Assembly (NCBI GenBank): GCA_963665845.2
Contig: OY762492.1
Coordinates: 800,001-864,000 of the forward strand
Direction: 5' to 3'
Length of the DNA: 64,000 nucleotides
Source of the DNA: Candidatus Poribacteria bacterium
GTDB lineage: Bacteria > Poribacteria > WGA-4E > GCA-2687025
In this document: positions 55,695-60,774 of the stretch, one piece after another
Position numbering within the stretch: position 1 is the first letter of the stretch
How the letters are laid out: every line of letters starts with the position of its first letter
Notes under the pieces: generated by a model
Told to the model about the DNA's origin: nothing
The model's input: only the letters and a program-made list of their open reading frames with translations
Database searches by the model: none
Translations under genes and position numbers: made by a program

Positions 55695-56861
55695 TCACTC
55701 TTCTCTCTCCGCCTGTCGGCGCTGCCATCCCCAATCGATCCCGCCGTCGTAAAACCGCTCTGGATTTTCAACCGCCCATATCTGTTTACGGATGATGTAG
55801 TTTTTCGGGTCCAGTTTGAGCGCCGCTTTCATCTGCTCGGCGGCTTCCTCTTTTCTGTTCAGTTGAAGGAGCAGCTTGGCGTATCGGAAACGGCGGGATG
55901 CGTCCTGCGCGTCCAGTTCCACGGCGCGTTCGTAGGCGTTCAAGGCGCGCTCCGCCTCTCCCTCCCGTTCATACAGCTCGGCGCGCAGCGTGTGAAACGC
56001 GGCGTCGTACGGCAAAGCCAGCGACAGCGCCTCAACCGCCTTGAGCGAGGTTTCATGCGCAGGGTCAGGCTTTTTAAGCGGCGCGCCGATCGGTTTTTTC
56101 GCCCACTCTTCCGCCTGTTGTTGAGACGCCTTCCCGACAAACCTGCCTTTTTCATCGATGAGCAGCGTGTTCGGAACCGCCCTTAGCCCAAACAGCTCTC
56201 CCAGCAGGTTGTTCGCGTCAATCAGGTTCACATATTCCGCGCCTGCTGCTTCGATATAGCGCCGCGCCGCTTCGGCTCCCTGTATGTCGATGGCGGCGGC
56301 GATGACGATGAAGTTGTTGTCGCGGCGCTTATCATATAACGCTTGCCAACCTGGCAAGTTGTCCCGGCACCCTCACCAGCTCGCCCAGGTGTAGAGCGCG
56401 ATCCGTTTGCCGATCAAGCTGGAGAGGCGGATCATCTCGCCGTCCAGGTCGGGCAGGGCGATGTCCGGCATCCGTTCGCCCGGTTGAATGGAGCGGGTCG
56501 GCGCCGCCCCCGGCAAGAGAGCCGGCGCCTCCGCGGTCTCGTCCCAACCGAAATGCGCGTTCAGCAGCTCCGGCAAACGGGACGCCGACGCATAGAGGCC
56601 GCGCTCGGTTTGGAGAACGCGCCGGTCGCTTCCGTCTAAAAATATGTTGACGCAGAACTGGTTGATGCAGATGTTGACGCTTCCGTCGGGGAGCGGCTCT
56701 AGTTTGGCGTTGAAGGCGTCCGCGGCGGGTTGAAGCGGAACATACGCCGCGGCGCCGAACCGCCGGATGTCCAGCTCTAGGGCGGTTCCGTTCGCGTGGA
56801 TGCGCAGTTCGTCTGCCTGCGCGCATGCGGCGAGGGCGATCAGGGCGGCGTATATCGTCAT
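55695..56861 (-). CDS. secreted redoxin-TPR selenoprotein (Sec at UGA 56373-56375), about 388 aa
   Basis: ORFs 56373..56861 and 55695..56357 are in the same frame: MPDIALPDLDG...ALYTWASW*GCRDNLPGWQ...AVPNTLLID, then TPRs. Confidence 0.85.
56342..56358 (-). promoter_or_regulatory. bacterial SECIS-like hairpin
   Basis: CTTGCCA-GGT-TGGCAAG, 14 nt 3' of the UGA, with GGU at the apex. Confidence 0.75.
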
Positions 56862-57094
56862 GCGTCTTACCTGCGCTTCGGTTTAAAATAGGAGGTTCTG
56901 CCGCGATCTTAGCGCCGACCGCGCCGGGATGCAACCGCCTTCCCTCCGACCTTACCCTTAGAGTTAGGATAATTCTGGTTGTGAACGCGGACGGCGCCTG
57001 CGGCATCTAAGATTCCCGCTTGCGCGGGAATGACGGGCTGATTGGCGCGCCTTTTCCCATAAGACGGAATGACGGACCGGCAGGCGGATTGAGG

Positions 57095-59530
57095 CTAGAA
57101 ACGCATCGACAAGCCGATGAGCGGAATAATCGGGAGCTGGTAGATTTTTTCTTCGGCTGAATAATCGTCGTTGTAGCTGATGTCGAGAACGTTGCGGCGG
57201 TAAAGCGCGTTCAAGACTTCCAGATACGCCCCGATCTCCGCCCCCGCCAGCGTCCAGTTGCGGGAAGCCCGCACATCCAGACGGCTATAGTAAGGCAGCC
57301 GCGCCGAGTTGGTCGCGCCGTACACCGGCTCGTACCGATACCCGCCTGCGCCGTCTATAGCAAGGTTCGCGTCCACAACAGGCGTATAAGGCAGCCCCGT
57401 CGCATAATGCCATTTGAACCCGATCTCCCACTTCGGGCTGGGCGCCAGAACGGCGGCGACTGTCGCGACATGCGTCTGGTCAAAACTGAACAGCCGCTCT
57501 TCCTCGTCGGGGCTGTCTTTGCGGGCGGAGCGCCCGTAGGCGTAGCTGAACCAGCCGAGGAGTTTTTCGGACGGGCTGTATTTGGCAAACAGCTCCACGC
57601 CGCGCGCCGTCCCTGTCCCTTGGTTGATGTAGATGTCCACCGGGTCGGAGATGGCGAGGCCGCTTTGCCGCTTCTGGTACGCCGCCGCCTTGATTTTCAG
57701 CGATTCTCCGATCTGCCGTTCCGCTTCGGCGATGAAATGAACGGCGCGGCGCGATTTCAGCCCCGAGTTCCCCCACGGCTCCAGTATCTGATACGGCTCC
57801 GGGCTTTGGCTGTACAACCCCCATGCGAGCCGCAGCGACGATTCGTCCGACGGCGCGTAGGAGAGGCTGAGGCGCGGGTCAAGGTTCACATCGCGCGTGA
57901 GGTTGAAACGCTGTATGCGCGCGCCGACGGTCGCTTTGACCGTGTCGGACAGCGAGGCGGTGTCCTTGAGATAGGCGGAGAGCCGGATCATCGGCTGGGT
58001 CGACTCGGCGCGTATCTTTTCGGCATCGACAAAATCGGGCGCCTCGGAGCCTTCGTCCGGCGGACGCGCGAAGAAGGAGCTGACGCTGGAGGTTCCCGCG
58101 TACATTTCAGCCCCCGCTTCAATCAGATGCGCGTCGTTCAGCGGATATACAAGGTCTTCCCGAAGCGTCCACATGTTCTGGTTTATTTTCAGAAAAAAGC
58201 CCTGCCCGATGGTGAAATCGAACGCGAACAGGTTCTGCGCCAATGTCGTGTCCAGAACGCCGCCGTTCTCTAAGCGGCTTTCAAGCGTCGCGCCGCGCCC
58301 GGCGAAGCTGTACTTGTAGCGCAGATCGCCCGCCAGCTCCGGGTCTTCAGTTACATCCTCATCTTTCAGGAACAGCTGCATGAAATCCTGCGAGCCGAAG
58401 GCGGACACCCGTAAAAACTGCGTCGGCGACAGGTCGTACTCCGCGCCCGTTTGATAATCCCAGAAGCGCGGAAACGCGGTGATCGTGTCGATGTTCAGAA
58501 CTTTGGGAAGTATCAGGTCGTAGTAGCTGCGCCGACCCGCCAGATACGCCGTCCCGTCCGCGCCCAGCGGCGTCGACAGAAACCATTCCGACAGCAGCAG
58601 ATTCAGGTTCGATTTCAGCCCGGCGCTCCGCTTCTCCAGCCGTCTCGGCGCAATTTCAATGACCGCCTGCGCCTCGCCGTATTCGGCTCCGAAGCCGCCC
58701 GCATGCACATCGATGCGGTCGATGATTTCGCTGCTGATGGTTGAGATAAGCCCGCCGAAATGGTACGGGTACCCTAGCGCAATGCGGTCAAAGTAGTATT
58801 TGTTTTCTTCAGAGCTTCCGCCGCGTATGTACAGTTCGCCGCTTAGGTCGTTCGCGGTGGCGACGCCCGGCATGGAGCGGAGCGCCCGGAGGGCGTCGCC
58901 TCCTGTGCCGGGGAGGCGTCGTATGTCGGCGCCGCTGATGGTCGCCTTGCCAGGTTTTATGACAGGCGGGCGCGTTCGGACGCCGGGGTCCAGATCCGGC
59001 GCCGCCGTCCGTTCGGCGCTGATCCGCTCCCGTTCGGGCGGATTGAGCCGCGCGGCGGGAAGGCTTGAAGTTGTCAAGAGAGCGGGCGTTTGCGAGGGGC
59101 GCATCGCCGGCGGATTCGCCGTCATGGGTTTGAATTCGGGCGGATCGGGCTGGCTCGCAGGCGGCGCGGCGCGCAAAGCGGCAGGCTCCCGTAGAAGCTG
59201 CGCCGTTTCAACGATCCCCCCGCCGCCGTCTCCGTACGCCGGGGCAATCTGAATGACCCCGACCCCGTCCTGCCGCGAGCCGTAGAGCAGCTGCGCCGGC
59301 GCGCCGCTTCGAACAGCCGCCTCCATCTTCGTTTTTGGCAGTTCAGGGCGGTCGCGCCGCATGGACGGCTTCCGTTTTTTTTCTTCAGTAAGAACGATCT
59401 CCGGCGCCTCCGTGTCCAGCATTTTCACCCGCTCAATGATGAAGGTGAGCGCCAGAAAGACGCCGATGATGAGATGCGCCGCGAGCGACAGAAGAAAGGC
59501 TGCGCTGCTTCGTTTGCGCCGCATGTTCAT
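57095..59530 (-). CDS. TonB-dependent receptor with TonB-like N-terminal anchor and Pro-rich linker
   Basis: Plug LPGTGGDALRAL..PGV..YIRGG..GGFGAEYG; barrel ending in F; N-terminal LSLAAH TM. Confidence 0.88.
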   Translation of the reverse strand: MNMRRKRSSAAFLLSLAAHLIIGVFLALTFIIERVKMLDTEAPEIVLTEEKKRKPSMRRDRPELPKTKMEAAVRSGAPAQLLYGSRQDGVGVIQIAPAYGDGGGGIVETAQLLREPAALRAAPPASQPDPPEFKPMTANPPAMRPSQTPALLTTSSLPAARLNPPERERISAERTAAPDLDPGVRTRPPVIKPGKATISGADIRRLPGTGGDALRALRSMPGVATANDLSGELYIRGGSSEENKYYFDRIALGYPYHFGGLISTISSEIIDRIDVHAGGFGAEYGEAQAVIEIAPRRLEKRSAGLKSNLNLLLSEWFLSTPLGADGTAYLAGRRSYYDLILPKVLNIDTITAFPRFWDYQTGAEYDLSPTQFLRVSAFGSQDFMQLFLKDEDVTEDPELAGDLRYKYSFAGRGATLESRLENGGVLDTTLAQNLFAFDFTIGQGFFLKINQNMWTLREDLVYPLNDAHLIEAGAEMYAGTSSVSSFFARPPDEGSEAPDFVDAEKIRAESTQPMIRLSAYLKDTASLSDTVKATVGARIQRFNLTRDVNLDPRLSLSYAPSDESSLRLAWGLYSQSPEPYQILEPWGNSGLKSRRAVHFIAEAERQIGESLKIKAAAYQKRQSGLAISDPVDIYINQGTGTARGVELFAKYSPSEKLLGWFSYAYGRSARKDSPDEEERLFSFDQTHVATVAAVLAPSPKWEIGFKWHYATGLPYTPVVDANLAIDGAGGYRYEPVYGATNSARLPYYSRLDVRASRNWTLAGAEIGAYLEVLNALYRRNVLDISYNDDYSAEEKIYQLPIIPLIGLSMRF

Positions 59531-59559
59531 GCTTCGTTCCTTGCCTCCGTTGCGTCGGT

Positions 59560-60774
59560 TTAGTCGTCGGCGGCGCGCGGGTCGCCCTTGAGCGTGATGA
59601 TCGGCTCCAGCGTGTGGACAGGCTCAATCAGGTCGGTCTGCCGCTGGATCACCTCATGAATGTTTTTATAGGACTGCGGCGCCTCGTCCACATATCCGCG
59701 GGCGGGGCGCGTGTAGGTGTGCGCGAGCGCGTTTTCATAGTCGTTCTGGTCGATGGTCTTCCGCGCCTTCGTCCTGGACATAACGCGCCCGGAGCCATGC
59801 GAGCATGAGCGGAAGCTGTCGGGGTTGCCGCGCCCTTTTACAATGTAGGACGGCGTTCCCATAGAGCCTGGGATGATGCCGATCTCGCCGTCTTGGGCGG
59901 AGGTGGCGCCTTTTCGGTGAACGACGACGCTCTCGCCGCCATGGTTTTCGATGCGGGCGAAATTGTGGTGGATATTGACGCCGCGCCCGCGCACATCCGC
60001 TTCGGCGCTTTCGCCCTTAAACAGCTCAAAAAACTGTTCAACGGCGCGCTCCAGCATGCGCCAGCGGTTCTCAAGGGCGAAGCGCACCGCCCAGCCCATG
60101 TCATGCAGATAGTCGTCGAACAGGCGGCTGTCCGCGCGCAGATAGGCGAGATGGGTCGGATATTTCGTCCTGGAACGCGCCAGCAGCGCCTCCGCCTGGC
60201 GGTTGTAATGCTCGGCGATGCGGTAGCCCGTGTGCCGGGAGCCGGAATGTACCATGAACCATACGCGTCCGTTTTCGTCCGTTTGCGCCTCCACAAAATG
60301 GTTGCCGCCGCCGAGCGTTCCGAGCTGAAGACGCGCTCTTTGTTCAAGATAGGTTTGAACGGGCTTGGCGCGCAGGTCAATATTGAACCCGTTCCAGGGC
60401 TGTTTCTTTTTAAACCAGTTGAAGCCGACCGGTATCGTTTGGAGCGCCGCTTTTTCCCATGTCCGCCAGAATTGCGGTTCGCCGCCGTCTATTTCGTTCA
60501 GCCGCTCTCGGCGTACGCCCGTGTTGTAGGCGCTGATGCCGCAGCCGATGTCGACGCCGACGATGTTCGGGACGACCGCGTCCTTCGCCGGCACAACGCT
60601 GCCGATGACGGCTCCCTTGCCGAGATGGACATCCGGCATGACCGCGATATGCTGATGGATAAACGGCAGCCCGCCCATCTGATGCAGCTGCTTCTGTGAC
60701 AATGTTTCGATCTCTTCAAGGTTGTCGACCCAGACCTTGATGAGCGTTCCGCCGCTTGTTCTGAATTCGACCAT
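59560..60774 (-). CDS. rtcB: RNA ligase RtcB
   Basis: MPDVHLG, GVDIGCG, GTLGGGNHF, HSGSR, HHN, HRKGA, PGSMG, SHGSGR, DEAP..YK. Confidence 0.96.
   Translation of the reverse strand: MVEFRTSGGTLIKVWVDNLEEIETLSQKQLHQMGGLPFIHQHIAVMPDVHLGKGAVIGSVVPAKDAVVPNIVGVDIGCGISAYNTGVRRERLNEIDGGEPQFWRTWEKAALQTIPVGFNWFKKKQPWNGFNIDLRAKPVQTYLEQRARLQLGTLGGGNHFVEAQTDENGRVWFMVHSGSRHTGYRIAEHYNRQAEALLARSRTKYPTHLAYLRADSRLFDDYLHDMGWAVRFALENRWRMLERAVEQFFELFKGESAEADVRGRGVNIHHNFARIENHGGESVVVHRKGATSAQDGEIGIIPGSMGTPSYIVKGRGNPDSFRSCSHGSGRVMSRTKARKTIDQNDYENALAHTYTRPARGYVDEAPQSYKNIHEVIQRQTDLIEPVHTLEPIITLKGDPRAADD

Follow-up and report, generated by a model that had tools for sequence, protein, structure and literature searches.

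How TonB opens the plug of its receptors, by pulling or as in other models, and how it resets the cycle are long-standing questions. Single chains that bridge both membranes are known from VirB10 and TamB, which have an uncleaved N-terminal helix and a long periplasmic part; to our knowledge, neither carries a complete plugged beta-barrel transporter of its own. Receptors with an N-terminal TonB C-terminal domain are common in Myxococcota. In E. coli the SHLS motif contacts ExbB via Ser16 and His20, and the D-box (I45, V47, M49) has the ExbD dimer as its partner, according to the cited sections of two papers (PMC12215075, PMC10907165), and the Leu and Ser of the motif are described in the first of them as less conserved. 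Section 8 of Williams-Jones et al. (2025, PMC12204202) deals with SHLS-anchored vWA transducers and describes no receptor fusion. In the cited portion of a survey of 34,893 transporters the five N-terminal architectures are none, CarboxypepD, and STN and AMIN combinations (Gomez-Santos et al. 2019, PMC6434023); being Pfam-based, this survey could not detect an SHLS anchor. For Poribacteria, the cited passages of PMC5087111 report highly transcribed ExbB/ExbD and do not mention a fusion. The open-access literature searched, with subscription papers outside its scope, held no description of a TonB anchor fused to a receptor. The fused receptor described here is a real, conserved and new form of the Ton system.

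The window analysed is a stretch of 64,000 nucleotides from a Candidatus Poribacteria genome. The fused gene, in which TonB domains I and II are joined to a TonB-dependent transporter, occupies 57095..59530 of the minus strand and encodes 811 aa in a single frame. A likely ribosome-binding region (GGAGG and AAGGA, 13 and 7 nt 5' of the ATG; 59538..59548, minus strand) adjoins rtcB on its downstream side. Following the translation along the minus strand, a basic N-terminus predicted to be cytoplasmic (residues 1-7, 59510..59530) leads into a predicted inner-membrane helix (residues 8-32, 59435..59509) with S15 (59486-59488), H19 (59474-59476) and L26 as an SHLS-type motif. The Pro/Ala-rich linker (residues 33-194, 58949..59434; homologous to TonB domain II and predicted to be disordered) is followed by the plug domain (about residues 195-300, 58631..58948) and a 22-strand beta-barrel with a C-terminal Phe (57098..58630). 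Pfam matched the plug with PF07715 at residues 197-287 (E 2e-9, above the cut-off) and the barrel with PF00593 at 359-762 (E 2e-18). The sequence-only reading had given the order as basic N-terminus, S-x3-H helix, linker, plug and barrel, which the open reading frame and the Pfam matches bear out; it was also right about a Pro/Ala-rich linker (15% Pro, 13% Ala), the length of which is 162 aa and not the roughly 150 aa it had estimated.

An AF2 model calculated from a 16-sequence alignment (mean pLDDT 56.5, pTM 0.59) contained a helix at residues 8-37 with low confidence, no fold at 38-191 and 22 barrel strands. Using this model, the top Foldseek matches were all TonB-dependent transporters (FepA, BtuB, ZnuD). 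Searching the PDB by sequence with a profile of 62 sequences returned no match at 1e-5, and the ESM Atlas gave no usable match for residues 1-195. As to expression of the receptor gene, one listed RNA run contained 5% of the words.

For comparison we used a homolog set of 121 proteins, made up of the query with its top 120 out of 674 matches, in which all named homologs belong to Candidatus Poribacteria. Of these 121 proteins, 14 share the anchor, at 41-92% identity. In the databases the fused proteins are annotated either as ordinary TonB-dependent receptors or as hypothetical, so that the architecture is invisible to Pfam-based surveys. The Ser and His of the S-x3-H motif, the conservation of which had been named as a check, are invariant in all 14 fused homologs, and H+7 is Leu in 11 of them; the other 107 proteins have no anchor motif and show ordinary signal peptides or incomplete sequences. 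In the query the motif takes the form S15-x3-H19-x6-L26 within a 25-residue run without charge (residues 8-32), the hydropathy of which resembles that of TonB anchors. The last Ser of the SHLS motif is missing, as it is in all five TonBs compared. With residues 1-200 of P0016 as query, P0016 and P0018 were the only ones retrieved among 1575 candidates. The anchor was absent from 146 further 50%-cluster representatives (best 150 of 20,730 matches); a motif match in one of them, P0241, was judged to be an ordinary signal peptide.

The kinship of the N-terminus was analyzed with a profile made from the N-termini of the fused receptors alone, which was searched against 22,663 sequences (22,653 six-frame open reading frames of the genome and 10 added proteins). 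The best non-self match was the TonB encoded upstream of an unfused relative in genome G015 (E 5.7e-8), followed by a TonB of the source genome (E 3.9e-7), the upstream TonB of G016 (E 8.6e-6) and then a DUF4159 protein. As the first match spans profile positions 5-184 of 205, anchor and linker are both homologous to TonB. Judged by this homology, the N-terminal ~190 aa are TonB domains I and II. In pairwise comparison the N-terminus of P0001 matches a TonB of its own genome better than it does the TonB of the G015 operon, leaving its exact donor uncertain. The TonB/TolA C-terminal domain (PF03544, PF13103) found no match in the fused receptor at E 0.1.

A genome-wide scan with the anchor motif returned seven open reading frames, namely the fused receptor, two TonBs, three vWA proteins and one DUF4159 protein; the third TonB and the second DUF4159 protein of the genome carry close variants of the motif. 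The SHLS-anchored vWA proteins (L044:1044-2618, L045:861-2066, L047:995-2095) extend the transducer family of 2025 to Poribacteria. The two DUF4159 proteins (L046:737-2113, L048:1043-2578) have the same SHLS-type anchor and linker and are candidate force transducers, of a class that does not appear in section 8 of PMC12204202.

The sequence-only reading had also seen no obvious AxA cleavage site behind the helix, and a crude (-3,-1) rule agreed, finding none between H+5 and H+22; A27-L28-T29 would form a weak signal peptidase I site solely if Thr is accepted at -1. By the same rule, candidate sites turn up in five of the 14 fused homologs, though not at a common position, and nine, the source protein included, have none; a conserved cleavage motif was not seen among the 14 by this crude rule. 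An internal second signal peptide was considered and rejected, since the hydropathy of the linker peaks at 1.47 and the signal peptides of the relatives have a median of 2.52.

The linker keeps a length of 160-165 aa in all 14 fused homologs, even though two species of the related genus share only 35-38% identity in it; for comparison, five TonBs have linkers of about 150-179 aa. Nine of the 14 fused homologs have a strand of alternating hydrophobic residues at H+24 or H+25, which is the spacing of the E. coli D-box. Of 84 other linker windows, 25 contain a comparable strand by chance, which leaves only the fixed position of the D-box-like strand informative. In the fused receptor it covers residues 43-47 at H+24 (59390..59404, minus strand) and is likened to I45/V47/M49 as given in the cited sections of PMC10907165 and PMC12215075. 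Throughout the source genus (five of the 14 proteins, the fused receptor included) the strand starts with Pro and is weaker than that of the relatives.

The TonB box was scored with a profile of 49 distinct boxes of unfused relatives, using leave-one-out on identical 9-mers only. P0056, in which the plug pattern is missing, was omitted, as were two truncated proteins. Among the 104 unfused relatives scored, 103 reached at least 6.6, values that are inflated because near-copies stay in the profile after leave-one-out. Near the plug of the fused proteins the scores were -3.9 to -13.9 (14/14). The fused receptor of the window scored -9.7, the lowest of the 10 receptors of its genome; seven of the nine others were positive and one scored -6.1. 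Comparison with the unfused relatives places its decayed box at residues 179-187 (58970..58996, minus strand), where Pro stands at a position with Val or Ile in 99 of 104 unfused relatives and the following Val is kept. A Pro in the BtuB box ends uptake and the equivalent FhuA change keeps 18% activity, according to the cited part of PMC11658791. A relic of the box is visible in seven of the 14 fused proteins, as the second Val in P0001-P0005 and as a hydrophobic-x-Val-Thr-Thr core in P0007 and P0009; P0008 has a box-like 9-mer with a score of 10.8 higher up its linker. By these comparisons the TonB box is decayed, not deleted, in the fused receptors, and the fusion has lost both handshake partners, the TonB C-terminal domain and the TonB box of the receptor. 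As a TonB-dependent transporter the protein has the plug and the 22-strand barrel with C-terminal Phe, with a negative TonB-box test; as a TonB/TolA transducer it has the SHLS helix and the Pro-rich domain II and lacks the C-terminal domain. Strictly, it is in neither family and would behave like a transporter and a TonB joined.

A frameshift joining two genes had been raised as a possible source of the fusion. The contigs of runs X1 and X2, possibly from the same study as the assembly, showed no differences and no gaps over 57011-59800, and the contig of X5, from a different study, bridged the linker-plug junction (58849-59057) without gaps. The contig of X4, with a depth of 2.9, has a single inserted T at 59374 within a T run in the linker. 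Given the gap-free contigs and the recurrence in independent assemblies, the fusion is not an assembly artefact. For four genome pairs dN/dS was 0.13-0.40 in the anchor, 0.10-0.55 in the linker, 0.01-0.16 in the plug and 0.05-0.19 in the barrel. All four segments are thus under purifying selection in all four pairs (dN/dS < 1); the plug is the most conserved segment by this measure, and the barrel keeps the invariant residues of the family.

Of the 176 genomes of the phylum, 171 have the receptor family. We inspected the 29 top loci of the phylum search, which had 630 further matches. Four of them are fused, all in the window's own family, and two have a complete tonB directly upstream; the other 23 have neither a fusion nor a tonB within 1.5 kb. 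The two split loci, in G015 and G016, consist of an anchor-bearing complete tonB followed by a receptor with signal peptide and TonB box; in G015, where the stop of tonB and the start of the receptor gene overlap, Pfam found TonB_C with E 2.7e-18. A second fused copy was found in G011. Among 107 additional loci, six are fused and nine carry TonB as a gene of its own upstream; the organisms of G015 and G016 account for three of these nine. Five further fused loci lie in four other genomes, and among the genomes inspected the fusion is confined to one family.

In a plug and barrel tree of 28 rows, seven fused and five split receptors formed one clade together with P0014, which has no locus context (100/100); the split locus L091 fell outside. 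The split receptor P0017 is sister to the fused P0016, P0018 and P0019, and the N-termini of these three match the G015 TonB best (E 2e-10). An AU test (23 rows, LG+G4) of a group chosen after the first tree had been seen rejected a single fused clade excluding the split P0017 (p 1e-5), which indicates repeated fusion. These trees suggest at least two independent fusions. The complete tonB directly ahead of the closest unfused relatives points to the split form as the ancestral one, and the simplest history would be two in-frame deletions within a tonB-receptor operon. Each such deletion would remove the TonB C-terminal domain together with the signal peptide of the receptor, probably at least twice; alternatively, one fusion may later have been restored to the split form by recombination.

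Besides the fused receptor, the source genome has three TonBs, nine more receptors, one exbB-exbD-exbD operon (ExbB5-ExbD1-ExbD2, C1:2375919-2378225) and genes of the Omp85 family. The neighbourhood of the receptor varies, with rtcB upstream in the source genus and a GHMP kinase gene downstream in another; as it is not conserved, it offers no clue to the substrate. The RtcB RNA ligase gene (59560-60774, minus strand) lies directly upstream of the receptor, a position that G013 alone of the genomes inspected conserves. Just downstream of the receptor, at ~57013-57032, a short inverted repeat (ATTCCC-N8-GGGAAT) coincides with a large depth spike in the contigs; the genome has 868 exact copies of it and the window 20. 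We take this repeat to resemble the Neisseria dRS3 repeat. At 55695-56861 (minus strand) two adjoining open reading frames are joined via an in-frame TGA (~56373-56375) in a W-A-S-W-stop-G-C motif. Both halves match the ResA-like WAxxUGC model NF041054 below its cut-off, and they likely form one selenoprotein.

Some further observations concern the motor proteins. ExbB (L001:775-1941) has an N-terminal carboxypeptidase-regulatory-like domain, in line with the cited passages of PMC5087111. Its first helix keeps an invariant Ser and, by an inferred mapping, has Val or Leu at the position of E. coli Trp38. A 556-aa open reading frame (L049:1136-2803) ends in an ExbD periplasmic domain, and similar ones of 660-1335 aa occur in other Poribacteria. 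At G000:C1:1316000-1327000 (L003, L004) two MotA/ExbB-like open reading frames lie beside three OmpA-domain ones, which we take to be a possible Zorya-like defence locus.

From the sequence comparisons, the product is probably a self-energised importer, which would stay anchored in the inner membrane, have its barrel in the outer one and draw its energy in cis from ExbB/ExbD. With somewhat less assurance we also favour the fuller reading of a natural one-chain Ton machine, in which ExbBD would pull the plug directly and which would have evolved at least twice from a tonB-receptor operon. The helix would stay uncleaved in the inner membrane and dock on ExbB via S15/H19, an ExbD pair would grip the strand at H+24, and BAM would insert the barrel with the chain still tethered, which the linker of 160 residues makes feasible. 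The proton-driven motor would then pull the plug via the covalent link, with no beta-strand handshake. Since TonB cannot let go of the box within one chain, release must happen at the motor end, and the weakened D-box of the source genus might, speculatively, act as the slip point. Energising in cis had been offered earlier beside a plain trans-envelope tether; the TonB homology of the N-terminus, the split form, the decay of the box, the D-box-like strand and the constant linker length now favour the former, the mechanism itself being inferred. The accompanying claim of no separate TonB stands for the fused receptor and not for the genome, with its three TonBs. By analogy, a tethered barrel might be expected to fail: LamB(A23D), the signal peptide of which is uncleaved, ends up in the inner membrane of E. 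coli, fails to assemble in the outer one and proves toxic, according to the cited part of PMC4817254, though it has no long linker. The three free TonBs, the relic box, the Pro at the start of the D-box-like strand and the anchor shared with vWA and DUF4159 proteins may also count against the main reading.

It is unlikely, but the least so of the alternatives, that the helix is an export signal only, that it is cleaved by signal peptidase or the linker clipped by a protease of the periplasm, and that the receptor uses a free TonB via the relic box or works as a weakly gated channel. Normal outer-membrane barrels leave the inner membrane, and the failure of tethered LamB, the relic box in seven of 14 proteins, the candidate cleavage sites in five of 14 and the free TonBs of the source genome and of all five family genomes searched are in keeping with this. 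However, a disposable signal would not hold S and H invariant in 14 of 14 proteins, nor would it be expected to preserve the spacing of a D-box-like strand or to need 160-165 aa of linker under purifying selection; nine of 14 proteins, including the source protein, have no candidate site, and the box scores are negative in all 14.

Slightly less likely again is an uncleaved, motor-coupled tether or tension element spanning the envelope, which would stabilise the outer membrane in a Tol-like way, with the barrel as anchor and not as transporter. The same anchor on vWA and DUF4159 domains of the genome, which points to a general force-transducer module of the kind treated in the cited section of PMC12204202, would fit such a role, as would the lack of a conserved neighbourhood naming a substrate. 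Against it stand the plug as the most conserved segment (dN/dS 0.01-0.16), the invariant residues kept in the barrel, the descent from a tonB-transporter operon and the confinement of the fusion to one family among the genomes inspected, and tethering could be done by the OmpA-domain proteins of the genome. We regard as quite improbable a motor-coupled export, as in Myxococcus Oar, or a signalling of ligand-induced tension to the inner membrane: a TonB-dependent transporter can secrete, and import and export are inseparable by sequence (cited portion of PMC6434023), but its surroundings hold no conserved gene for a secreted partner, a sigma factor or an anti-sigma factor, and the cytoplasmic tail has only ~7 residues. 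That the fusion is an artefact of assembly or gene calling, or a remnant without function, for which the one inserted base in the linker of the depth-2.9 contig could be quoted, is hardly credible in view of 14 homologs of several sources with identities as low as 41%, five more fused loci in four genomes, the gap-free contigs and the purifying selection.

If the reading as a one-chain Ton machine is true, the handshake is merely a handle and pulling is enough for transport; barrel assembly would be possible without release from the inner membrane, against the rule that barrels are cut free. A natural protein with its TonB arm attached covalently to the plug sets the pulling step apart from the rest of the cycle, and the fusion offers a design for E. 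coli, in which TonB domains I and II would be joined to BtuB or FhuA.

Taken together, the fused receptor shares with the Ton system of E. coli (BtuB, FepA, FhuA) the SHLS-type helix, a candidate D-box-like strand, the Pro-rich linker, the plug and the 22-strand barrel, beside an exbBDD motor encoded in its genome; it differs in being one chain, in which the TonB C-terminal domain and an evident cleavable signal peptide are absent and the box is decayed. With the transporters in the cited portion of the PMC6434023 survey it has the plug and barrel core in common. The opposite fusion, with the TonB C-terminal domain ahead of the plug, was found in 51 of 146 distant family representatives (P0122-P0267; best 150 of 20,730 matches); these receptors carry the other half of TonB, have a signal-peptide-like leader in the examples inspected and no SHLS anchor. 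The vWA transducers in the cited section of Williams-Jones et al. (2025, PMC12204202) resemble it in the TonB/TolA-type helix, the motor box, the linker and a non-TonB C-terminal module, whereas the C-terminal module of the fused receptor is a complete outer-membrane barrel, so that its chain would cross both membranes.
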